Below, one piece after another: positions 17,690 to 32,550 of a stretch of DNA of 64,000 nucleotides. Source of the DNA: Octopus vulgaris. Lineage: Eukaryota. How positions within the stretch are numbered: the stretch's first letter is position 1; each line of letters opens with the position of its first letter. The stretch lies in assembly GCA_951406725.2 (NCBI GenBank), contig OX597817.1, positions 67,022,001-67,086,000 of the forward strand, given 5' to 3'. The position numbers were made by a program, and so were the translations under genes. Under the pieces are notes generated by a model. That model made no database searches. It worked only from the letters and a program-made list of their open reading frames with translations, and had not been told where the DNA came from.

Positions 17690-18527
17690 TTTGTTGTATG
17701 TGGTTAGAACTCACGAGACATAAGGGGAAACTACTCTAAAATAAAACTCATGCTCGATCTGATAATCTCCCTTCTTATTTCTTCCAAGTTCTTTTGTTTG
17801 TTTTTTTATTTTAAGCCGTCAGACAAATTAAACCAGCAACTAATTAGTGTCTATTATGTGGTCACTCCTCCAGCCAGAAATAATCAAATTACCCTCAAAT
17901 TACGACCTAGAAAGAAATTACGCATAAGAAAATGTAATCCAAGATATAACATCATAACAAAAAAGGTGGCTACGGGTGGAGCGCTTTTGATCAGAGGTTA
18001 GTTCGATTGGAGCTGACTCGGTGCTAACGACAACAGCAACAACAACAAGGAAACAAATTGATTGTCACAGCTAAGGTTACACTGGAGCATAATGTTCTAA
18101 TATTTCCAAGTGCTTCTGATCGCGTAAAGAAAAAATATTAAAAAAATTAATTTGGAAAATTATGAAAGCGCATTAAGTAACTTCTTTTAAGATTGCTCTA
18201 CCTTTAGCAACAATATGGCTTTTGGCAAATGAGGGACTCTATATGTGGTCACTTCACCTGCTAGTAATAGTAGCCAAATCCCTTTCAAGTCACACCCTAC
18301 CCGTTTAAAAGAGAAAAGAAGCATTGAATGATATAGTTCTATATACTTGAAAAATAAAACTTGATGGTCGTAAATGGAACGCCTATGGTTATAAGTCTAC
18401 TCTAAGTTATAAGTCATTAGGGTTTAAACAACAATAGCAACGAAGATAAAAAGTGTTACTAACCCCAAAATTTCCATTTGGTAAAGGAAAAAATGTTTCA
18501 TACTAATTTGGAATCTTTTATCGTTTA

Positions 18528-18874
18528 TCTTTTACTTGTTTCAGTCATTAGACTGGGGCCATGCTGGGGCACCAGCTTGAAGAATTTTTAGCCGAATGAA
18601 TCGACCCCTTAATAAGTCTGACATTTATTCTATCGGTCTCTTTTGCTGAACCACTAAGTTACGGGGACGTAAACACGCCATCATCCGTTGTCAAGCGGAG
18701 GTGGCGGATAGTTACAAAGGCACACACATATGACGGGCTTATTTTAGTTTCCGTCTACCAAATTTCGTATTCACAAGGCCTTGGTCGGCCAGAGGCTATA
18801 GTAGAAGACATTTGCTCGAGGTGCCACGCAGTGGGACTGAACCCGGAACTTTATGGTTGGGAAACAAGCTTCTT
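18528..18874 (-). mobile_element. SINE family B lacking its first ~20 nt
   Basis: Complete body and tail; on the minus strand it begins AAGAAGCTTG instead of the full ..GGCTGTGTGGTAAG head. Confidence 0.85.
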
Positions 18875-19812
18875 TATTTCATGAAATTTGCCATAAAGGT
18901 ATAACAAAGATCAAAGCAAATGCGGGCTGGACAACAACACAAATGAAATGAATGATGAGCAAAATAATGATATTGATGAGAGAATCAAACGATCGATGTC
19001 CCTCGAGAACACTGTTCTTTTTTTCTCATTTTTTTAAAAGCACAAATGAGGTAATGAACCTTTTACAGTAGTCAAAAAGTTCTAAATCAATCGAGGCGCC
19101 AAGACCTCTCATTCCACCTCCCCGATCAAATCTCTCGCCGCTTGCAAGCAATCCCACAGTAGCAAATCGGGGACCCAGAAAAGATAATTGAATTCCTCCT
19201 TAGAAAAGGCATGCATTATCTTATAAAAGTAACTCTCCTCCATGACCTCCGCAGCCACCTGCGGAGGCCAATGTGGGCTATCAATGCAGGTCGGGACCGC
19301 CAGTTCCCGACCTTCAAAACTTCTTACAAAGTTCTCTACGGCCCCTCCCTTGAGAAAGAAGATCACAAATTCCTCATTATTTTCACTGGGAGAGGCCACA
19401 GTTTCCTCCGTCGGTGGCACAATTCTCACCGACGAGGTTTCGGGACATGCCGGCAGTGCACTGCAAACCGCCGGCACTGACCCATTCTTTTTTTCTTTTT
19501 TTTTTTTGCCCTTGGTACGGGAGGGGTTGGTTCCTTCGCCTTAACCGGAGGAACATCGCTTCCTCCCGCAGCTTTAGGATCCTTCGGTGAGCAACCATTG
19601 TTGCTCTCCTTCTTCCTTTTTTCCCTCTTTTTTCCGATGGATGTCTCTCCCTCCTCACGTACCTTCATCACTCCTTCCGGAGGAGGAGGGGGGCTTTTCC
19701 GCAACTTACTGCTCCAGGACCCTACTCTGGTCCTGGGGACAGTTCTTTTTGATGTGGATCGGTTTCAGGCACAGGTGACACTTGGGAAGAAACAAAATCT
19801 CTTTGCCCTCCA
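18875..19812 (-). mobile_element. ORF1-only retroelement, copy 1 (5'-truncated, internally deleted, frameshifted)
   Basis: EGKEILFLP-KCHLCLKPIHIKKNCPQDQSRVLEQ, basic KKKKKKR run, and C-terminal FFLKGGAVEN..WPPQVAAEV..CLQAARDLIG, homologous to copy 2. 3' UTR ends ggcaaatt..aataaag. Confidence 0.75.
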
Positions 19813-19897
19813 AGTACCAGTTGCGCACTGGGGTCGATCTAATCGACTGCCCTCCCCCCACTAAAATTTCGGGCCTTGTGCCTAGAGCAGAAAAGGA
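19812..19897 (+). mobile_element. 3' fragment of SINE family A (alternative tail)
   Basis: aagtaccagttgcgcactggggtcgatctaatcgac..aaaatttcgggccttgtgcctag matches the 25113-25326 copy. Confidence 0.75.
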
Positions 19898-20500
19898 TAT
19901 AGTAGAACCACTGAACTTTTCGTTGGTTGTCCGGTAACATATTAACTCATTTATCAACGCTCTCATGTATAAGAACACATGTATACATATATGTATATGT
20001 GCGCTTTTGAAAAATGTAGACCTGCTTTTATAAATATGTGTACGTGCATTATGTACATATGTGCAAATATATGTAAAATGTGTGTTTATGGCAGAATAAT
20101 TGGAATTTAGGAAACCACTTAAGGGCTCACAGTTACGCAGTGTATCTAAAGCAAGTCAGCATAGTGAGGTACGTTCCTTTCCAAAATATATTCACGAATA
20201 GAATTGGACTTCGTCAGAGGCATTTGTCCTGTTGCCCCAGACAGCAGTATATATTATAACCCTGCACCATTTATTCATAGCTAGGTGAACGGGTTGTTGA
20301 CAATTAAGTATTTTTATCATGAATAGACTTTCCATGAATAAAACTACCACTAATCCATATGCTGGTCACTTGGTGACCGATCAAAATCCAAAAGTTTCAC
20401 GTACCTTATTCATTGATAAACAATTAGTATTTCACTATATAGAATAAAAGTTGAATCAAGTGCTGTATGATATAAATTCGAGTATCAGGTACGAAACATA

Positions 20501-20719
20501 CGAGTGGATGCTGAAAAGACTCTGGCTTTGGATAAAAAAAAAATACAGTAGGATCAGTTAATTATGATTTTATTTAACATATTCCTCATCTCAGAGTTAC
20601 ACACTTATTGCATCGGTCTTTCAGTTTTTCTAAGCCCTGTAAAAGAACTAGGAAAGTTGGACCTCCAACTAGGCCTTTCATGACACTCTTAAAGCCAGGA
20701 ACTTTTTAGCATCCCATCG
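20501..20719. mobile_element. Mariner-derived MITE
   Basis: TIRs CGAGTGGATGCTGAAAAGACTCTGGCTTT and AAAGCCAGGAACTTTTTAGCATCCCATCG, TA on both sides, no ORF. Confidence 0.85.
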
Positions 20720-22599
20720 TACACCCATTGTCAATCGACCCTCGAAAACAATGTCGTTGGGCTTGCCATCAGCAAAAATCTTGCAAGTATCTGGTGTTAG
20801 GATCTCTTAGCTAGGCTTTCAACCAATGGATTTCAACCATTGGTTTTTAGATGGAATTTTCCATTTAGATCACGTAATTACAGAGAGTGGTGACATGGTT
20901 GTCTCTGAACCGTACTATAATCTATCTATCATTCTTCTGATGAAATGTTACATTTATATCGCCTTCAAAGTCACTACAAATAATATAATATGCAGTCTCT
21001 GATGATCTTTTTGGTATGAAAAATACGATTGATTAAATTTTTGGTATGAAAACTATCATTGATTAAATTGGCTGAAATACTCACCCTGTCGACAAGTATA
21101 CGAGTGCCTCTTTTTTCTGACTTATGGATTCGTAGACGACAACACAAACACAAACACTTTTATAATAGTATCTTCTTACCTATTGTGCTCTAATAAATGT
21201 AACGAAACCGAGGCATCATCTATTAGAGAAACACCATTTATATTATTTAAATTATTCGTAAGACCTACAAATAAATATTTTAAATTGAGTATGAAATATA
21301 TTATTTTATGCATTTAGTCTTTTACTGATTATTGGAGTGTGGCACCATTTTCAAAGAGATAGACAAGCATATAAACTCCAATAATTGTTTTAAAACTTGA
21401 TACTTATTTTTATCAATGTCTGTTTTCTGAACAGCATTAACAGCGCTGGCTTTAAGCAGCATAAACTTAAACCTACATTCAAACACACACACACACACTC
21501 ACAATGTACTATTTGCCAAACATCACTCTACCAGAGTGACATAGTAAAAGACACCCAAAGTTCTATGCAGTGAAATCGAATCCAGAACAACCTGTGTGAC
21601 TATATTTTTCATTTTAGAATCCACAGCTCAGTGATGCAGTTACTATACTTCGTTCTCTGGCACTGTGGGTTCAAGCCTAGTCATATGAACTTTTTCTTTG
21701 ATATGAAAATAATGATGGAACATAGAGAATTAAATTTATTAAAACTTAGTCGTACAGTAGCAGAATGATATCATATAGATAGATAATGTCTTCGATTTCG
21801 TTCCATAGTTAAGATTGTTTACTTCTTGGAGAAAAGTGAAAAATAACAATATAACTTTAAAGGTGAAAAAGGTGATAAATGTATAATAAGGTCTTTAGCA
21901 TTTGGAGACGTTATCTTCTAAGACTACACATTCAATACTATTTTGGTTTTTACATCGTCAAAAGTCATATTTAAAAAAATACACAATTTCAAAAAGTTAT
22001 ATATTTCATGATTCTTTAGAAACTTTCAACCATGTCACAGTTTTCTAAATAATTGTAAAATTTCCACAGATACATCTAGTGTATGTATGAGGTTTATTTA
22101 AGCTCTTTTTAATGGAGCTTCTTAATGGAAATTTGAGTTCTTGTGAGGCGGTTGCTAACAAAGTGACAAGACTTAGTTTTTTTTTAATATGTGGTTGAGT
22201 AAGTGTGTGCAGATATCAGGTGTATGTAACTGCTTTTACGATTCGTGTGAACGTGTCTCTTCAGTGATTATGTGTTTGTGCATGCCTGTGCATCAATACT
22301 TTTTACATTTGTATTTTTTAGGTGTACGCAATCAAGAGTGTACATCTATTCATTTACAGAATCTCAGGTAGGGAGCCTTTGGAATGTTTTATAATTTTTT
22401 CCTATACTGCAAATAGATTGAATTTGTAGGACGTGTGTTAGTTTTATTTATCTATTTATTCTCTTTCTTAAAAAAATCCAAGTATTCGTAGGTTTTTGTG
22501 CAAATTCGTAGATACATAACCCAATGCACTTATGATGATAGATACGAATGAAAATTTTTAGTCGGGGTAAAAGAGCTGTATGTTCCACATTAGTTCATA

Positions 22600-23395
22600 A
22601 ATGTGTTTTTTTTAAACTTTTGATGGTACATTCACATCCCCTGGCTTCTACAAAGATGCATGACTTCAGTTCCCTATCCCAAAGAACAATATCAAGTTTA
22701 TTGTGTAAATGTGTAAATATATTCTGGTTCTGACATGCCTTTGATGTATCCTTCAGGAAAATCTTTCCTGCAGTTAGCATTGTATGTAACTTTGTATCTA
22801 TATCATGTCTCAAGAGTAGGTAATATCTTGCAAACATTTGAAACAGCTGTTGATGATATAGATAATATGCTAAACACCGAAATAGAATAACCGATATGTT
22901 CTATCACAAGGTGGAGATTTGGAGGAATCATTGTCTCTCTTCTTTGTCCGGTATTCAGTAGCTATCTCCTTTTCCTGGATAGCGAAAACATACCCTTCAA
23001 GATGATATGTACTTTATCTATCACAAGTACATGAGAGGCTACTCTTCCTGTCAATGTTGCTGTTATCCTCTAGTCTACGGGATATATACCCATGCATTGC
23101 TTTTTACTAGTATGATGAGTGCACCTCTAAGCTTTTGTTTAAGCTGTTCAGTTCACTTTCTTTGGGTCAGGTGAGACTATTGTACACACAGAGTACCAAC
23201 ACAGGAGTTCTTCCCCTATTATAAAGATGGTGTTGTTCTACTTTTGAATATGCTTGTAATGTACTCGTTTCTTTCTTTACTTTTCCGCAGGTGCTATCTG
23301 TATGATACAATGCGACATTCAAATGCTGTTTGAACTGACAGTATGCCTCTGCCACCATCACTTTGTTCTAAATAGATGCTGTTGATGTGGAGGTT
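22600..23395 (-). mobile_element. RLE-type (R4/NeSL-like) LINE fragment
   Basis: Decayed CCHC region ..IINSCFKMFARYYLLLRHD and KLDIVLWDRE (RPD-like restriction-endonuclease motif). Confidence 0.65.
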
Positions 23396-23399
23396 GTTT

Positions 23400-24430
23400 T
23401 TAATTATTTGAAATCTTCCTCCGAGGAAGAGCTGGTTTCTAACCAACATATAAAGCTCCGTCGTGAGAATGTAGATAACAAAAACAAATTCACATTTTAT
23501 ACTTGAGAAAAGTCTTGCATAATTTTACTGTTCCGCTTATAGATTGTATTTGCTATGTGCGAATTAGCTGGTTGTTTTCTTTTTCTGTGGACCTTAGCTA
23601 ATGTAAACTTTCACTTAAGCCTTTATTCACAAAACCAAGTGCACCAATTATCATTGGTATAAATGTGAATTTATAACCTGGATATAGAAGCTTGGGGTTT
23701 CGAAGATGTCCTTAGTTATCCTCCTCCTCCTCTTTGATTTTCGAAGAGATATTCATATTAGTAGAGCAGCTGACCTCTATGACAGTACTTACTGCTTCTT
23801 GTCTGTCTCAAACAACAATATCCGGCCCATTATATTTACTTTGACAGAAGTTTTGATGGGAATGTTCCCATAATATTCCACGTGTTGATGATTGTATATG
23901 CATTTAATAACGAGGAGATTCTTATATTTATTCCAGGACAGTCTTTTTTTCGAATGACACTGTATAGTTTTATCGACAACATCTTGTAGCATAGGGAAGT
24001 TGTACATTGATGACATTTTTAGATAGTTGCTAACCACTGATGTCTTCTATAGTAATCAGGCATAATGTACATTTTCGGTTGCACCTTGCAGCTCCAGCAA
24101 CTTCACTGTCTCTTTTGTTTACAAAGTATTTTATAGCAATCTCTTCTTCTTAGATTCCAAAAGTATAGCCTTCGAAGTAAGATGTGACGTAGCAGACACG
24201 AGTCCAAAAGAGACTACACTTCATGTCAACATGACTGTCTCCTTCAAATCTTCGGGAAACATACCCATGTATCTTCTTAATTTTGGTGCACACTTAATTC
24301 TGAGCGTTTCATATCCCGGTCTTCTTTGAGATACGTTAGTCCGGCTTATGGGATGCTGTTAACCAGACTGTTTTAGGGTTATATGGGATGTCATCAGGGA
24401 AAGAATGCTTCCTGCAGACCTCACTGCGAC
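23400..24430 (-). mobile_element. RLE-type LINE 3' end (second copy of the same family)
   Basis: CTLCLITIEDI..KMSSMYNFPMLQDVV; RPDIVV..VIEVSC..IPMIIGALG..LCKTFLK*; 3' UTR ggttagaaaccagctcttcc..aaaataa. Same family as 52760-53460. Confidence 0.75.
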
Positions 24431-24533
24431 ACGTAGGATATTATTCACCTTCGCTTTTCAGTACAAAGTTTGTTTTATTTTTGCTACTATTGTTTAGCAG
24501 ATGCTGTCTGAGAGCGAGCGAGCAAGAGAGAGA

Positions 24534-24573
<40 letters not shown>

Positions 24574-25112
24574 ATACGACACGTATGTATGTATTGTATT
24601 CGAGAAAATAAACGATAGCAAGTTTGCCATTTTTAAGTCATCTTTAAAATATTGCGGAAGAATTTTTTTTTACCCAACAGAAGCTTAAAGCGATAACGAT
24701 TCATTTTCTTAAAATATACAATGTTCTATACAAAAAAAAACCCAAAAAAACAAAAAAACACTTGAATACATAAACCCAGAAGTATGATAGCATTTTCAGT
24801 ATCTTCAACACAGACAACATTTGAAAAAAAAGACTGTTTAAATATCTATATAATCTAATAATATAACAATTTTGAACCTCTCCTGCACAAATTACAACAT
24901 GTACAGGCTGTCACTCTGTAATATTTTCATAATTAGCCTAATTATACTTGTAACTACTAAAATTGTTTCCGTTTTGTTGTTATTTTTTTAATCTTTGACA
25001 GATCAGTTGACTATGATGCACTTAGATTTTCAGTATGTTTATTCCGAGGTCAGCAAACTACGATCAAAAGCACTCCAGACGTGACCAACTCTTCGTTTTA
25101 GTGAAGTCTAGA

Positions 25113-25326
25113 ATTCTTTTCTACTGTAGGCACAAGGCCCGAAATTTTTGGGGCGGGAGCCAGTCGATTAGATCGATCCCAGTACGCAACTGGTACTTAA
25201 TTTATCGACCCCGAAGGGATGAAAGGCAAAGTCGACCTAGGCGGAATTTGAACTCAGAACGTAAAAACGGGCGAAATGCCGCTAAGCATTTCGCCCGCGT
25301 GCTAACGTTTCTGCCAGCTCGCCGCC
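25113..25326 (-). mobile_element. Full-length SINE family A with TSD
   Basis: Intact head and core; ~18-bp TSD ttagtgaa(g/a)tctagaatt on both sides. Confidence 0.9.
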
Positions 25327-25455
25327 TTAGTGAAATCTAGAATTACATTAATTGTCTATTCTAATGAAGAATACCACATTCTATAAACAGTACATGTTTT
25401 TTGTTTTGTATCTATTGTCCATACATCTAAGTATAGAAAGTGACTATCTTTTATC

Positions 25456-25783
25456 GCAGGCGTGGCTGTGTGGGCAAGAAGCTTGCTTCCCAATCATGTG
25501 GTCCTGGGTTCAGTTTCCCTGTGCGGCACTTTGGGCAAGCATGTTCTAGTATAGCCCCGGATCAACCAAAAGCCTTTTATTTGCGTCTGTTTGTGTTGTC
25601 TTTGTCCCTCACCACCACTTGACAACCGGCTTTGGTTTGTTTATGTCTCTGTAATCTAGTGGTTCGGCAAGAGAGACCCATTGAAGAAGTGTCAGACTTC
25701 AAAAATAAATACTGAGGTCGAATTGATTTCTACGACTAAAACCATTGAAGGCGGTGTCCTAACTTGACAACAGTTCAATGACA
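25456..25783 (+). mobile_element. SINE family B with head (internally deleted)
   Basis: gcaggcgtggctgtgtgggcaagaagcttgc (A box), gggttcagtttcc (B box), ctttgggcaag core, family B 3' half. Confidence 0.8.
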
Positions 25784-25828
25784 GCAGAATATAGTGATTT
25801 CATGGTACAATATTATATTATTGTATAA

Positions 25829-26040
25829 GGCAGCAAGTTGGCAGAATCGTTAGCACGTCGGACAAAATGCTTGGTGGCATTTCGTCCGTCTTTACGTTCT
25901 AAGTTCAAATTCCGCCGAGGTCGACTTTGACTTTCATGTTATCGGGGTCGGTAAAATAAGGACCAGTTGAATGCTAGGGCCGTTACTATCGACTTACCCC
26001 CTCCCCGAAATTGCTGGCCTTGAGCCAAAATTTGAAACCA
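25829..26040 (+). mobile_element. SINE family A (older, alternative tail)
   Basis: ggcagcaagttggcagaatcgttagc..gttcaaattccgccgaggtcgac..ggccttgagccaaaatttgaaacc. Confidence 0.8.
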
Positions 26041-26744
26041 ATGTTATATCATTGTTTTTTTTAAATAATTTTTAATGAGCGAATTTCACAATAAAGCAGA
26101 CACTACTATTTTATTTCTGAAATGAATGGTTTCATCGTGACCGTAGACACTTAGCTTTTTAGGAGGAAGTATATCAGCAAAGTCAAAACTGGATGAATAT
26201 ATCAACGGCTATATTGTTTTGAAAGAATATGTTTAAAATGCATGAGTGACACAGACTGATGATAATGCTATCCACTTAAGAAGGTGAAAGACATTCGACG
26301 TTGATGGAGAAATTAGTTTACTCTCCCGCTCCTTTTGTTGTATTGTTTTCTTGTTGTATACATTAGAGTTGGCACAGAAACTAAATAAAAGGAAGCACTG
26401 GCAATTGTTGACAGGCATCGTAAAGGGATCAGTCATAGTTTCAGGGAAAGAAAGGAAATGTTGTTGTAGCAAGAACCCATCCAATCTCTGTAGACCTGTT
26501 ATTTGAATTAAAGAAAATTAATACAGGAATCGGGTGAAATGCCAGTCAACCATCACAATGTAAGGTCAACCATAGGCGTTGTCAAATTTAAACGAGATAC
26601 CCAAATTCTTGGATCTAGTTGAATTTCTTCCAACCACTTGAAGCTTTTCGAGTTTTTATCAGATTATTTTCAAAAAATTTAGTTCCAGTGTAGTTTCGCA
26701 TATTGATGACTCGCATTCCTTTTTTCCTAGATATTAATAATCGT

Positions 26745-27336
26745 TTCTTATTTCTTTATTGCCCACAAGGGGCTAAACATAGAGGGGACAAACAAGGACA
26801 AATAGAAATTAAGTCGATTACAACGACCCCAGTACGCAACTGGTACTTAATTTATCGACCCCGAAAGGATGAAAGGCAAAGTCGACTTCGGCGGAATTTG
26901 AACTCAGAACGTAACGGTAGACGAAATACCTATTTCTTTACTACCCACAAAGGGCTAAACACAGAGGGGTCAAACAAGGACAGACAAACGGATTAAGTCG
27001 ATAATATCGACCCCAGTGCGTAACTGGTACATATTTAATCGACCCCGAAAGGATGAAAGGCAAAATCGACCTCGGCAGAATTTGAACTCAGAACGTAGCG
27101 GTAGACAAAATACGTATTTCTTTACTACCCACAAGGGGCTAAACACAGAGGGGACAAACAAGGACGGACAAACGGATTAAGTCGATTATATCGACCCCAG
27201 TGCGTAACTGGTACTTATTTGATCGACCCCGAAAGGATGAAAGGCAAAGTCGACCTCGGCGGAATTTGAACTCAGAACGTAACGGCAGACGGAATACCGC
27301 TAAGCATTTCGCCCGACGCGCTAACGTTTCACCGCC
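26745..27336 (-). mobile_element. Head-to-tail trimer of SINE family A
   Basis: Three ~185-bp body+tail units; only the first carries the head. Junctions tail aaagaaata|(g/c)gtattt at ~27114 and ~26930. Confidence 0.9.
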
Positions 27337-27499
27337 TTAGTAGAAAGGATTAATAATCCTTTCTACTAAAGGAACAAGGCCTGAAGTTTCGGAGGAGGGA
27401 ACAAGTCAAATACATTGACCCCTGTGTTTCACTGGTATTCAATTTATCGACCGCGAAAGGATGAAAGGCAAAGTCGATCTCGGAGGAATTTGAACATGT

Positions 27500-28150
27500 G
27501 TGTGTGTCCCACTACCGCTTGACAATCGGTGTTGGTTTTTTTTTTTACATCCCGTAACTAAGTGGCTCGGAAAAGGCACCGATAGAATAAGTACCAGGTT
27601 TTAAAACAATAAGTCCTGGAGTCGATTCGTTCGTCAAAAAGTTCCTCAAGGTGCTGCCCCAGCATGGCTGTAGTCAAATGAGTGAAGCAAGTAAAAGATA
27701 AAAGATAAAGATAAACCTTTGGAGAAAAAAAACTTCCCGAATTCAACTTTGATTTGTAATAAAATATATTGTTTTAGTTTAAGTCGTAATATGGAGCAAA
27801 GGTCGCAGTTAAATTTAGTAAGGAAGGCAGTTGAAAGCATTAACTGTTAGACATTTGGACATCGTTTGTTGAATGTAAGAACGGAAATTGTGGAAGCTCG
27901 TCGTGTGTGTATGTGTGTGAGTGCATGTACATGTGTATCTGTTTGTGTTTTTCCGCCCCACTACTTGATAACTGGTGTTGGTTTGTTTACATCCCTGTAA
28001 TCTAGCGGTCCGGTCAAAGAGACCCATGGAATAGATACCAGGCTTTAAAAAAACTAGTACTGGAGACGTTTTATTCGACTAAACCTTTTCAAAGTGGCAT
28101 TCCAGGATGGCTGTAGTCCAATGACTAAAACAAGTCAAAAATAAAAGATA
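27500..28150 (+). mobile_element. Two 3' halves of SINE family B
   Basis: ccgcttgacaa.cggtgttgg..gatagaataagtaccagg..cagcatggctgtagtc..aagtaaaagataaaag at 27500-27712 and again at 27880-28150. Confidence 0.75.
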
Positions 28151-29323
28151 CAATGATGTCATACAAGAAGTCATAAAGTGCCACACGAGGCCCGAGTGTT
28201 GGAAGTTGCTCTTACTTCTCTCGTACAGAATCCTTCGTTGCTAGTTTTCGATTTTGTTATATTTGTTTGCAGTACACTCTTTTTTAACATGTGTTTTGAT
28301 GATTCTAAAATACCGTAGATTAGATGTTTTTAGAGGATGGATCGCTCGTGGTTAGGTGTGTTGTGTAAACGTCCAAAAACTTGAATAATTAACCGAGTGA
28401 ATAGAATGTTGATTAAAAAGCATTACATTCGGTCTTCTAAGATCTGAGTTCAAATCCCAAGATTCAGCTTCATTTTAGATTTCTTCAGAGTCGACTGAGC
28501 AAGTAACAGTAATACACGGTGACTGTATCAAACAGTGAAAGGCTCACACCAACGAGAAGGAATCGAAACGCCGCTAGATCAGCTAGAAATAACAGCTAAA
28601 ATTCACTCCCTTTTTTAAAAAAAGGAAACAACTATCGGTAATATAGTCTTAGACACTCTAAAATGTGGAGGGGATAGCTATAGTTGGAACATTTTTGATT
28701 CCTAGTTTTCACTCGTCAGAAATGACTAAAGGTGCTTAACGATAACAAGAACAATAATAGAACTCTCCCTTACAATGTCTTTTCACTGATGTAACCTTGA
28801 GATCACATCTAAATTAGATCATTTTACAAGGGAGAAAAATAAAAAGTAAAATCAATAACGTGATGACAACAACAGTAACAACAACAAGCAGCAGCAGCAG
28901 CAACAACAAGAATATCTCATGATACCCCCCACCCCACCATTAAATGGATGTTTACTATGAAGTGTCTTGAGTTCTTGTTTTGCAATTGAGATCTTCAAAC
29001 AAAACAATCCAATTATTCTGCTTTAAATAATTAAATGGATGATGTCCTTACAACAGTTAATAACAACTCTCTCCACCATCACTCATTCTAGAAAATAAAA
29101 AACAACTCAAAAACGGTAAATATAAGTACAAAATTATTTCCTATATAAATAGGCTCAGACAAAAATCACTCAAATGCGCACGCACACATACCTCTATTAT
29201 ACACAGTTATACATCTTTCTCCCTTTCACTCCCCCCACTTTCTCTCACACACATGCAATACACTTCTCCCTCGTGCAGTCAAAAGCATACATGTGAGTAT
29301 GCACATATTTTCTGTTATATCAA

Positions 29324-29556
29324 GGCGGCGGCGAGCTGGCAGAATCGTTAGCACGCCGGGCGAAATGCGTGGCCGTATTTCGTCTGCCGTTACGTTCCGA
29401 GTTCAAATTCCGCCGAGGTCGACTTTGTCTTTCATCCTTTCGGGGTCGATAAATTAAGTACCAATTACGCAGTGGGGTCGATATAATCGACTTAATCCAT
29501 TTGTCTGTCCTTGTTTGTCCTCTCTGTGTTTAGACCCTTGTGAGAAGTAAAGAAAT
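29324..29556 (+). mobile_element. Full-length SINE family A with TSD
   Basis: Near-identical to 8287-8518; ~16-bp TSD acatattttct(g/a)ttata. Confidence 0.9.
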
Positions 29557-29869
29557 ACATATTTTCTATTATAAAATACATAATCGCTTATAAGGTGCAG
29601 GCATGGCTTGTGAGATTACGAAGCCTACTGCGAGTTCAGTACTACTGCACTGCACTTTGGGGATATATGTATCGTGGGTTAGGTAGATGTGGTTTACACT
29701 AACTAAAACTTTATTAATTACTAAATTTAGAAGTAAATGATAGCCATAGCTTTTCATGATAAAAATGTAAAGCCTTGTTTTAGTGTACAAGTCTGTAACT
29801 GCTTTATATTTTCATTTCATCAAAATTTCCCTACGACATGCAAATTAGATTTCGTCGTGCAAACGTACA

Positions 29870-30075
29870 CTCTTTTACTCTTATACTTGTTTCAGTCATT
29901 TGACTGTGGCCATGCCGGAGCACCGCTTTTAGTCGAGCAAATCGACCCCGGGACTTATTCTTTGTAAGCCCAGTACTTATTCTATCGGTCTCTTTTGCCG
30001 GACCGCTAAGTGACGGGGACGTAAACACACCAGCATCGGTTGTCAAGCAATGCTAGGGGGTCAAACACAGACACA

Positions 30076-30152
<77 letters not shown>

Positions 30153-30313
30153 TATAAATATATACATATATACGACGGGCTTCTTTCAGTTTCCGTCTAC
30201 CAAATCCACTCACAAGACATTGGTCGTCCCGGGGCTATAGCAGAAGACACTTGCCCAAGATGCCACGCAGTGAGACTGAACCCGAAACCATGTGGTTGGT
30301 TAACAAGCTACTT
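29870..30313 (-). mobile_element. Young SINE family B with internal (CA)n, lacking its first ~20 nt
   Basis: Very similar to 48208-48622, but plus-strand aagctactt is followed by foreign sequence instead of accacaca. Confidence 0.9.
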
Positions 30314-31903
30314 TATTTTATCTAATTTGCCACAGGGGCATTACACAGATGTAGCTTTGCGGGCTGGACATAAACATTAATGGTATGAATGATGGTGATG
30401 GAACGAAGATGATGATGGGAGAAGACGAAAGCGCCCGCCGACTTCCGCTTCTCCAAAACAATGTTCTTTTTTCAACAAATCATAATGAGGCAATAAACCT
30501 CTTACAATGTTCTTTTAAAATATACAGAAAGTTCAGGTATCAATATAATACAATGTTCCTTCAAAATATACAAAAAGTTCAGGTCACCCGGCCGACCAGC
30601 GCTCTTGCTTCATTGAAGCACTCAGCCGGTTCCAGGCCAGACCACACAAGTACAAATCCATAGGTGTCCGCCGGGAAGGAATTCGCGATCCTGCACAGAT
30701 CATTTTCCCATAGGACCTCCGCAGCTACCTGCGAAGGCCACTTAGGGTCTTCCGTGCAGGACTGAAGTCCCTCCCATTGGCCCCTCCTTTTCATTTTCCT
30801 TATTTCGTTCTCAATGGTCCCTCCTTTGTGGAAGAGGACCACATATCTGACCCCTGGCAGCACATCCGCCTGAGGAGGATCGGGACACGCCGTCTGCGTG
30901 TCACAATCCGCCGGCGGCGTCCCGTTTCTCTTTTTTCGTTTTTTCTTTTTTCCCTGGGCCGCGGGAGGTTGAGGTTCCTGTGGTGCACACAACGGGTCCT
31001 CTTTTTCTCTCGCAGCTCCCGGGTCTTTCGGTGGGTCACCATTGTTGTCCACCTTTCTTTTACGTTTTGAGGATGTAACAACCTCCTCGTCACTCTTCTG
31101 CTTCTCTCCCTCCATTGGAGGGGCAGGGAGAGATTCCACCATTAACTGCTCCAGGATCCTACTTTGGTCCCTGGGGCAGTTCTTCTTAATGTGGCCGGTT
31201 TCCAGGCACAGGTGACACTTGGGGGGGGGGGGCGTCCCTCAAGCATCACCGGATACCTGGACTCGGCCATCCTCAAGAAATCTGGAAAAACCAGACTTTC
31301 GGCTGATTGGGTTCATAGGGTCAAAACAGCTTTCGACCACTCCCAATCAGCCGCAGGCAACATTTTAACACTCAGCAACTTGGTATTGCTACCAACCAGA
31401 CCCCGGCGGATAGAGTCCTCTATCCACTCGGGCTCAACTCCGGGTGGTAGGCCACAGATCCAAGCTTTTGATAGATTGTTTCCCATATAAATTGGCAAAA
31501 ATAATATTTCTTTGCCATCAAGGGGCTGGCTTGCAAAATCGGAAGCTTCTTGTGGGGGAGTCAAATAGCAACACTTATCCTTTAACACTTCTTTGAGGGG
31601 GAACACCTTCACATCGTTCCCCGCCTTTTGAGTATTTCCTTGAACTTGCTCAATTCTTCTAAACTTATGTCTTCCATTTTTCCTTTTGTCGCTGCAGTAT
31701 AATTCCTTGTTTCCAATACTTCGTCAATTTTCTTCAAACATTTTACCGTTTCTTCCTCAGACGACACAAAGTCTGAAGAAAAATAATTCAAACCTTCACA
31801 ACTCCTCACACGGCGCCCCTCCATTAAACAAGAGGGAAAACGTCGCACCGCCATGACAACCAAAAAACACGTGTGTTACACTCAAAATCCATAATCCAAC
31901 TGA
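30314..31903 (-). mobile_element. ORF1-only (HAL1-like) retroelement, copy 2, apparently full length (~1.6 kb)
   Basis: Initiator-like TCAGTT at 31903, ~45-nt 5' UTR, one reconstructable ORF, ~265-nt 3' UTR ending gcccctgtggcaaattagataaaataaag. No RT or endonuclease sequence, no LTRs. Confidence 0.75.
30579..31854 (-). pseudogene. ~425-aa ORF1/gag-like nucleic-acid-binding protein with CCHC knuckle (3 lesions)
   Basis: Track ORFs 31609-31863, 31313-31612 and 30579-31142 join through a frameshift at ~31610, a TGA at 31313-31315 and a frameshift in the G12 run at 31221-31232. Motifs WICGLPPGV (RRM-like), EGRPPKCHLCLETGHIKKNCP (CX2CX4HX4C) and KKKKRKKR. Confidence 0.75.
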
Positions 31904-32049
31904 CAAACACTATAAACAGTTAAATTCTATTTTTAAATGACTTCCTTCGAGAGTTGCATTCGGTACGATGTGTTTATTTATCTTAGTAGTTTTGACTTTA
32001 AGAGTCCCTCCTAGCGTGTGGCATTTATGTGTAGCAATGCCCTCTATAT

Positions 32050-32440
32050 AATATAAATATAAATATATTTTCGTTCGGCTTAACAGCCCTTCTTGTTATT
32101 TAACCTGTCCTATCTTTTACTGCTTATATTTTGTACTGTCGTTACTGTCCTGTTTTTGTTACCATTTTTACCCCTCTGCAAAAAGATCTCAAATTTTATT
32201 TGATTTGCTTTTCGTAGGAAGGAAAGTTTCTATCGAAGATACGTCTCGCCTTCACCTTCGAAACGTAGAGTAGATGAAACCATGGCGACTGAAGAGGGTT
32301 TTTTTTTCCTTGTGTTATTTGTCCTGTACTCTATTTTTTTGTTGTTTGGGGAAAATGTCCAGTTCCTTGGGTTTGTGTCTATGTTTTCGTTTCTCATTGT
32401 GTTCGACGTTTTTTTTTTTTTGGTGTCCTGTGCCCATATG
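32050..32440 (+). repeat. Non-coding dispersed element embedded in (TA)n, related to 54990-55530 (-) and 48730-48790 (-)
   Basis: Shared T-rich layout, ctgtcc blocks, cGAAA..actgaaga and a gtcctgt(a/g)c end abutting TA microsatellites. Class uncertain (possibly Penelope-derived). Confidence 0.45.
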
Positions 32441-32479
32441 TGCGTGTATATATACATGTAGAGGTAGGTACGTACATAT

Positions 32480-32550
32480 ATGTATATATATATATGCATA
32501 TGTTTTATTTATTAATATATATATATATATATATGCATATGCTTTATTTA

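Follow-up and report, generated by a model that had tools for sequence, protein, structure and literature searches.

The closest described counterparts of the octopus system reported here are the crocodilian Tx1-Mar long interspersed elements (LINEs), which target Mariner-N4_AMi together with their SINEU passengers, as well as Xenopus Tx1, which inserts in Tx1D, and Tx1-9_AMi, which inserts in Harbinger (Kojima 2015, PMC4494074). Mammalian HAL1 (PMC5753468), Drosophila HeT-A (10.1101/2025.06.09.658640), and R2 (PMC11194090) share further features with it; our statements on published systems draw on excerpts of the cited sources. We analyzed a window of 64,000 nucleotides (nt) of the Octopus vulgaris genome (assembly GCA_951406725.2, contig OX597817.1, positions 67,022,001 to 67,086,000), which contains two copies, designated A and B, of a retroelement family (family 1) that encodes the protein of open reading frame 1 (ORF1p) and lacks ORF2. 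As judged from sequence comparison, family 1 very probably belongs to a set of non-autonomous, ORF1-only elements that insert at a single base of a short interspersed element (SINE B) with a target site duplication (TSD) of 8–17 bp, and that are likely mobilized through target-primed reverse transcription (TPRT) by the endonuclease and reverse transcriptase (RT) of a co-targeting L1/Tx1-type LINE, hereafter the driver.

As with Tx1-Mar and SINEU, an L1/Tx1-type LINE targets another transposon, non-autonomous passengers use the same target, the TSD is approximately 16 bp, and tandem copies sandwich one TSD. Unlike that system, the octopus target is a SINE hit at one base, the passengers are protein-coding ORF1-only elements, and a second SINE rides along; moreover, the octopus tails carry a motif complementary to the target (anti-target) that covaries with the site, of which none appears in the excerpts of Kojima 2015 (PMC4494074). 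A preliminary description of the window termed family 1 HAL1-like. The term holds as a working analogy, in that both are non-autonomous and ORF1p-only and have several independent origins (PMC5753468), but the octopus ORF1 is type I (two predicted RNA recognition motifs, RRMs, and a CCHC knuckle), whereas HAL1 has the type II ORF1 of L1. In addition, octopus insertion is sequence-specific, no poly(A) was seen at the junctions, and the ORF1s of family 1 and of the current driver branch apart. HeT-A elements are likewise ORF1-only, contain a CCHC motif, depend on the ORF2 of another family and form head-to-tail arrays, and the Drosophila telomeric elements have repeatedly lost ORF2 and diversified as ORF1-only lineages (10.1101/2025.06.09.658640); however, HeT-A belongs to the Jockey clade and is added to chromosome ends, whereas the octopus elements lie inside a dispersed SINE with a TSD. 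R2 shares sequence-specific TPRT, and its templates may carry target-derived 3′ sequence, but it uses a restriction-like endonuclease on ribosomal DNA and needs no template-primer pairing, and the octopus motif lies internally and complements the top strand, not the primer (PMC11194090). In these excerpts, each ingredient has a precedent (PMC4494074, PMC5753468, 10.1101/2025.06.09.658640); our literature searches did not turn up a system that combines a SINE target with several long-lived ORF1-only passengers and a covarying anti-target. The 2026 octopus repeat annotation (PMC13282606) gives L1-Tx1 families merely as counts, the excerpts of PMC8967140 and PMC4758252 hold nothing on targeting, and the same searches found no published description of the present system; Repbase, Dfam, or the deposited octopus library may already hold the families.

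The genome was searched with a 219-amino-acid frame of copy B (151 matches; 150 of the 6,239 candidates were scored). Whole family-1 elements are approximately 2.0–2.3 kb long, with a 5′ untranslated region (UTR) of approximately 600 nt, an ORF of approximately 400 codons and a 3′ UTR of approximately 250 nt. When the 30 best loci were inspected by eye, the 3′ flank was the SINE B body in 22, the target followed by another element in six, and a target-like start followed by other DNA in two; a SINE head was present upstream in 23. Genome-wide, 721 of the 975 exact family-1 tails stand directly before an exact AAGWAGC, compared with 0 and 5 for the reversed-pattern controls, and the first 30 exact-tail loci on C1 comprised one chance match and 29 loci at the target, 24 of them with ORF1. 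No ORF2 was found in these first 30 tail loci or in 44 further units. Exact empty target sites number 76,745 in 2.8 Gb (approximately 1.4e-5 per strand-position), and the chance expectation is therefore approximately 1e-5 per insertion; 1,067 occupied junctions of the GAAAT type were counted. Accordingly, the 3′ flanks are not random and the copies inspected do not continue into an ORF2, which bears out the proposal in the preliminary description of a non-autonomous, ORF1-only family with a fixed SINE target site. A young half-element subfamily has a mean identity of 96% (up to 99.5%), which makes its age similar to that of the young driver described below.

The target SINE, which we take to be the octopus CORE-SINE OR2, is interrupted between motifs that, by eye, resemble an A box and a B box. 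Neither ARAGORN nor Rfam called a tRNA in the head of a young copy. A tRNA-Met-like gene was observed just upstream of a SINE head that carries an insertion (L017:314-385). A recurrent SINE B variant (L224, L225, L243, L245, L247 and others) lacks the segment just past the target and joins GCTT(G) to TTCCGGG; it is possibly a deletion subfamily or the product of failed insertions.

The insertions have the signature of non-LTR elements mobilized by TPRT: a fixed 3′ end, variable 5′ truncation, a TSD, and no long terminal repeat (LTR). The 78 single insertions flanked by both SINE head and body range from 49 to 6,192 nt and differ in their 5′ breakpoints, and an exact TSD of 7–17 bp was found in 16 short insertions. 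Three 5′-truncated copies (L198, L232, and L219) duplicate bases private to their locus. Among full-length copies, the distal 5′ TSD frequently tracks the element subfamily rather than the locus (at position 13, 10 copies have the element-type base and 13 that of the locus; at position 16, the counts are 8 and 1). We infer from this pattern that the RNA starts with bases resembling the target, which anneal at the second cut. Because the target would be rebuilt on insertion, arrays could form. One array on C7, in a stretch of at least 40 kb, contains 16 whole units with one 16-mer between neighbors, and another array lies on C1. The C7 array (G000:C7:13455001-13495000, L103-L106) comprises several ORF1-only families and LINEs head to tail, with single target 16-mers between the units. 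Several different 5′ UTRs occur with one and the same 3′ subfamily, an indication that template switching between co-targeting RNAs is frequent.

In an unbiased junction search, 3 of 30 loci had the ORF2 of the driver ending at the target base. In its older subfamily, the 3′ end lies at the target site in 28 of 30 loci as counted by eye (an automated target flag gave 29, with two false matches and one miss), and full-length copies of 5.1–6.2 kb (L344, L353, and L355) have a SINE head and a TSD. A younger subfamily was reached via the endonuclease of the older one. Among its 19 regions, which were picked solely by endonuclease similarity and a long ORF2, the 5′ junction is at the site in 18 and the 3′ junction likewise in 18; the 19 whole units of 5.45 kb have a median identity between copies of 98.6% and an ORF2 of up to 1,150 codons. 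Pfam recognized Exo_endo_phos in L355 and, under the cut-off, RVT_1 in a piece of L343. The L364 ORF2 matched L1 ORF2p best in the PDB (1e-67, residues 6-870; R2, 1e-20), and a C-terminal Cys/His motif is visible in the translated ORF2. The driver ORF1 has a CCHC knuckle and can be aligned to the same RRM core as family 1 (type I). The driver also shows the Tx1-clade trait of target sequence preference with a TSD, and we call it Tx1-like, a label taken from its anatomy. Driver and passengers occur in common arrays (L363 and L377). Other searches missed the driver: it did not surface in a zf-RVT search (30 and 20 loci), in which only L041 ended at the site, as a chimera, and two earlier junction searches, the second of which excluded G-containing tails by design, each placed ORF2 at the site in 0 of 30 loci, with many matches being deleted or truncated SINEs.

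An unrooted ORF1 tree contains separate clades for the driver, for family 1 (100/100; long branch) and for family 2, which is likewise ORF1-only. Family 1 is thus not a recent deletion product of the driver, and may derive from an extinct or unsampled parent LINE. Family 2 uses the same base and is 1.7 kb long in L092 and L100. The non-coding SINE A also inserts there, with 272 exact joints and 29 of 30 loci at the base. The SINE A copies L061-L090, which insert at the SINE B site, have the Tx1-like tail as well. SINE A is often followed by another SINE A that begins at about position 52 (L064, L075, L083, L086, and L089; L111), which suggests a fixed self-target. At L194 (G000:C1:185362400-185365900), a family-1 tail is joined to AAGAAGC and then to a SINE A head instead of the SINE B body.

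The family-1 ORF1p was modeled from 36 sequences (mean predicted local distance difference test, pLDDT, 74); a fold from 8 sequences (pLDDT 46) was discarded. The model consists of two α/β domains (residues ~10-100 and ~100-180), the knuckle, a disordered basic linker, and a confident C-terminal domain (CTD) of 90 residues. The top Foldseek matches were tandem-RRM proteins (E about 1e-4), and the VIA structural match was a La RRM (Z 10.0, root-mean-square deviation 2.6 over 83 residues). No fold-search match covered the CTD, which was modeled within the whole protein. Pfam found no Transposase_22, the type II ORF1p domain, in the family-1 ORF1. By the definitions in the excerpted PMC5203782, the modeled protein is a type I ORF1p with two predicted RRMs and a CCHC knuckle. 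Among 20 intact natural ORFs, the ratio of nonsynonymous to synonymous substitutions (dN/dS) was 0.17–0.21 in the RRMs, approximately 0.23 in the knuckle and 0.46–0.70 in the CTD between subfamilies, in a sample of selected intact copies with non-independent pairs. The RRMs are under purifying selection, and such selection on ORF1 without an adjacent ORF2 would imply a benefit in cis. The nearest protein match of the window ORF1 is an Octopus protein, and related ORF1-like proteins are on record for Argonauta and for three species of Octopus. The profile of the family-1 ORF1 also matches, at 2e-84, a public Octopus protein annotated as "EPM2A-interacting 1-like", which may in fact be a retroelement ORF1.

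Family 1 and the driver have in common a tail hairpin whose stem varies on both sides (TGCC/GGCA, TGTC/GACA, GGCC/GGCC, and CGCC/GGCG), although the pattern used for this tally favors stems. The anti-target lies 45–80 nt before the 3′ end and is the reverse complement of the target start, and its distance from the end differs between the LINE and family 1. Of 137 family-1 tails, 88 match the reverse complement of their own target over at least 7 nt, as do 41 of 51 LINE tails, compared with 3–5% for shuffled targets. The motif corresponds to the target, in that GCTAC tails stand at AAGTAG and GCTTC tails at AAGAAG: the counts of motif against target were 88/1/1/7 for family 1 and 40/0/0/1 for the LINE, with the exact motif absent in 40 and 10 tails, respectively. 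Only 1 of 129 GCTAC tails is at AAGAAG, though 17 of the first 100 empty sites, counted by eye, are AAGAAG. In the copy B lineage, AAGAAG is the site of all six basal rows, of which five have GCTTC and one lacks an exact motif, whereas the 28 rows above one branch (support 99) are all at AAGTAG, 26 of them with GCTAC; the switch from GCTTC to GCTAC thus accompanies that from AAGAAG to AAGTAG. L305/L129 and the LINE L288 provide two further contrasts, giving approximately three independent contrasts overall. From these sequences, the tail-target complementarity looks selected; drift of the endonuclease with age could likewise account for the change of target.

The fixed site, the TSD, the variable truncation, the lack of ORF2, the selection on ORF1, the young LINE at the same base, the common hairpin, and the single-target arrays, all directly observed, can be combined as follows. 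An internal 5′ promoter would give rise to an RNA starting with a few target-like bases, which the element's own ORF1p would coat in cis; such coating would explain why ORF1 is retained. The ORF2p of the driver would recognize the common tail in trans and nick the bottom strand opposite GT|AAG. The top strand would be cut approximately 8–17 nt downstream, where the target-like 5′ end of the cDNA could anneal; the target would be rebuilt, and later elements would stack head to tail. Site specificity most likely comes mainly from the endonuclease, and the anti-target is likely to assist by pairing with the top strand of the target or with the read-through TSD in the RNA.

Alternatively, pairing of the tail motif with the top strand, in an R-loop that frees the primer strand, could be a main determinant of landing, which we regard as unlikely. 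The excess of anti-target matches over shuffles, the motif/target counts, the rarity of GCTAC tails at AAGAAG, the joint switch on one branch together with the L305/L129 and L288 contrasts, and the different motif positions in the LINE and family 1 all speak for such guidance. Nevertheless, the independent contrasts number only about three. Discordant cases are L128, L278, and, among the exact tails, two with GCTAC at AAGAAG; the exact motif is absent in 40 of the 137 tails of family 1, and in one young subfamily the motif contains a 1-nt insertion. Landing is also precise for family 2, SINE A, and copies truncated to 50 nt, whose DNA lacks the motif. A cis hairpin involving the read-through TSD is an equally good prediction (z of only −0.4 and −1.5), and endonuclease preference combined with element age could yield the same pattern. 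It is similarly doubtful that a LINE with an apurinic/apyrimidinic endonuclease (APE) chooses its target partly by RNA-DNA pairing, with the 7–10-nt anti-targets of the LINE and of long-independent ORF1-only parasites having co-evolved with SINE subfamilies. Tethering of the ribonucleoprotein by the fast-evolving CTD to RNA polymerase III (Pol III) factors on the SINE head, with the endonuclease fixing just the base, is improbable. Dictyostelium TRE5-A is a precedent for tethering to Pol III factors. HeT-A ORF1p directs telomere targeting, according to the excerpted 10.1101/2025.06.09.658640. The position of the site between box-like motifs and the high pLDDT of the CTD, which evolves faster than the RRMs, would fit a role of ORF1p of this kind. 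However, the non-coding SINE A uses the same base, the C-terminal regions of the driver, family 1 and family 2 are very different, and arrays grow at isolated 16-mers without a SINE head or B box.

Two further explanations deny separate insertion into the SINE. Spread of SINE head, element and SINE body as one composite would account for the distal 5′ TSD tracking the subfamily in many full-length copies, but is very improbable given the wide range of insert lengths, the differing 5′ breakpoints, the locus-matched TSDs, and the presence of unrelated families at the same base and in mixed arrays. The preliminary description considered that the elements might be captured by an RT jumping from SINE RNA at a fixed stop onto element RNA, as both window copies lack the SINE head. 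This has the least probability of all, because intact copies have a 5′ head and TSD (23 of the 30 best loci), other repeats are found at the broken 5′ ends of the window copies, and 6 of the 30 best loci run into another element rather than the SINE. The locus-private duplications in truncated copies argue for independent TPRT events and refute both explanations. TPRT by the driver remains the preferred reading, and several observations weigh against it. In the C7 array, a LINE that is unrelated and loosely targeted also ends at the site, as a chimera with a half-element 5′ UTR. The family-1 ORF1 does not appear to derive from that of the driver, and the partnership therefore rests on the common tail and the common site. 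Among the 975 exact family-1 tails, 254 lack an exact AAGWAGC (in samples, mostly diverged targets), 3 of 47 further tails have no target, and copies A and B themselves lack a SINE head and a 5′ TSD.

The system reverses the usual relation between LINE and SINE: a SINE whose intact sites number at least 76,000 provides a safe landing pad for a LINE and several of its protein-coding parasites. Separately evolved ORF1-only lineages under purifying selection represent a natural test of the cis requirement for ORF1p. A young, intact, base-precise APE-type LINE and a one-base target change over time bring a question of long standing within reach of testing, namely how L1-type endonucleases gain sequence specificity and whether RNA helps. 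If the tail indeed pairs with target DNA, the insertion site would be reprogrammable through RNA, and a motif that steers insertion would be a lead for site-specific gene-insertion tools.

In the window, both copies are on the minus strand and, as had been noted, end in ...GGCAAATT..AAATA and are fused to the same base of SINE B (copy B at 30314|30313, AAGTAGCTTG; copy A at 18875|18874, AAGAAGCTTG). The SINE 5′ parts at the two junctions are 83% identical to each other and 88–91% identical to a third SINE copy of the window, compared with 69% identity for the common ORF DNA, in agreement with two independent insertions rather than one duplication. RT and endonuclease are absent from both copies; the basic run and the CTD motifs were recovered, and the CCHC knuckle gave the sole Pfam match in the window frames (zf-CCHC, E 0.004, under the curated cut-off). 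The anatomy proposed for copy B needs revision. Its ORF of 425 amino acids consists of three broken frames (88, 136, and 219 codons), and the supposed compact unit is a chimera of a family-2 5′ end and family 1 (Table 1), and not one of the 39 remaining scored copies runs across its joint; the chimera could stem from a template switch between co-targeting RNAs or from deletion between tandem copies. The TCAGTT read as an initiator (Inr) lies approximately 11 nt inside the family-2 5′ end and is TTAGTT in most of 11 family-2 copies viewed. Copy A is indeed homologous to family 1, as a diverged subfamily, but has lost approximately 88 codons (RRM2), so that GKEILFLP is directly joined to KCHLC. 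The SINE head is missing at the far end of both copies, as described; this is damage limited to these two copies and not a family trait, and the heads appear to be lost because other repeats adjoin both 5′ ends.

Table 1. Positions of copies A and B, their parts and the adjoining repeats in the window.
Feature	Position	Strand	Similarity
SINE B body with the AAGAAG form of the target, downstream of copy A	18521..18874	-	
Copy A: diverged family-1 subfamily, 5′-truncated, RRM2 deletion near 19784	18875..19811	-	72% to L189 over 880 nt
SINE A-type tail, opposite orientation, adjoining the copy A 5′ end	19812..19900	+	
SINE B body downstream of copy B	29871..30313	-	
Target 16-mer, 3′ copy of TSD, AAGTAGCTTGTTAACC	30298..30313	-	
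Family-1 portion of copy B: ORF1 beginning at ~codon 70, with frameshift and one stop; CCHC knuckle, basic linker, CTD, 3′ UTR, tail	30314..31572	-	85-91% to loci L003, L004, L029
Tail hairpin TGCC-loop-GGCA, common to the driver LINE; double-sided changes in other families	30328..30340	-	
Anti-target motif AAGCTAC in the copy B tail, reverse complement of target GTAGCTT	30351..30357	-	
Open 219-codon frame (knuckle, linker, CTD), query for the genome search	30582..31238	-	
Copy B, 5′ part of family 2 (~1.7 kb when whole); start is the expected end of the family-2 TSD; head and TSD lost	31573..31914	-	
Another repeat adjoining the copy B 5′ end	31921..32520	.	31921-32070 matches flanks of the L149/L150/L152 LINE family

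Other Tx1-like LINE families (L143, L144, and L108-L109; L147, L151, and L153; L149, L150, and L152; L157) appear to have fixed targets of their own in other repeats. One of these targets is, by eye, a Penelope-like repeat and one is a TTA microsatellite, and some of the families occur in tandem arrays. In L107:530-10000, an array of a LINE and other ORF1-only-looking units occupies a different target (GAATGTAGAG...), which suggests that ORF1-only derivatives recur for other targets.

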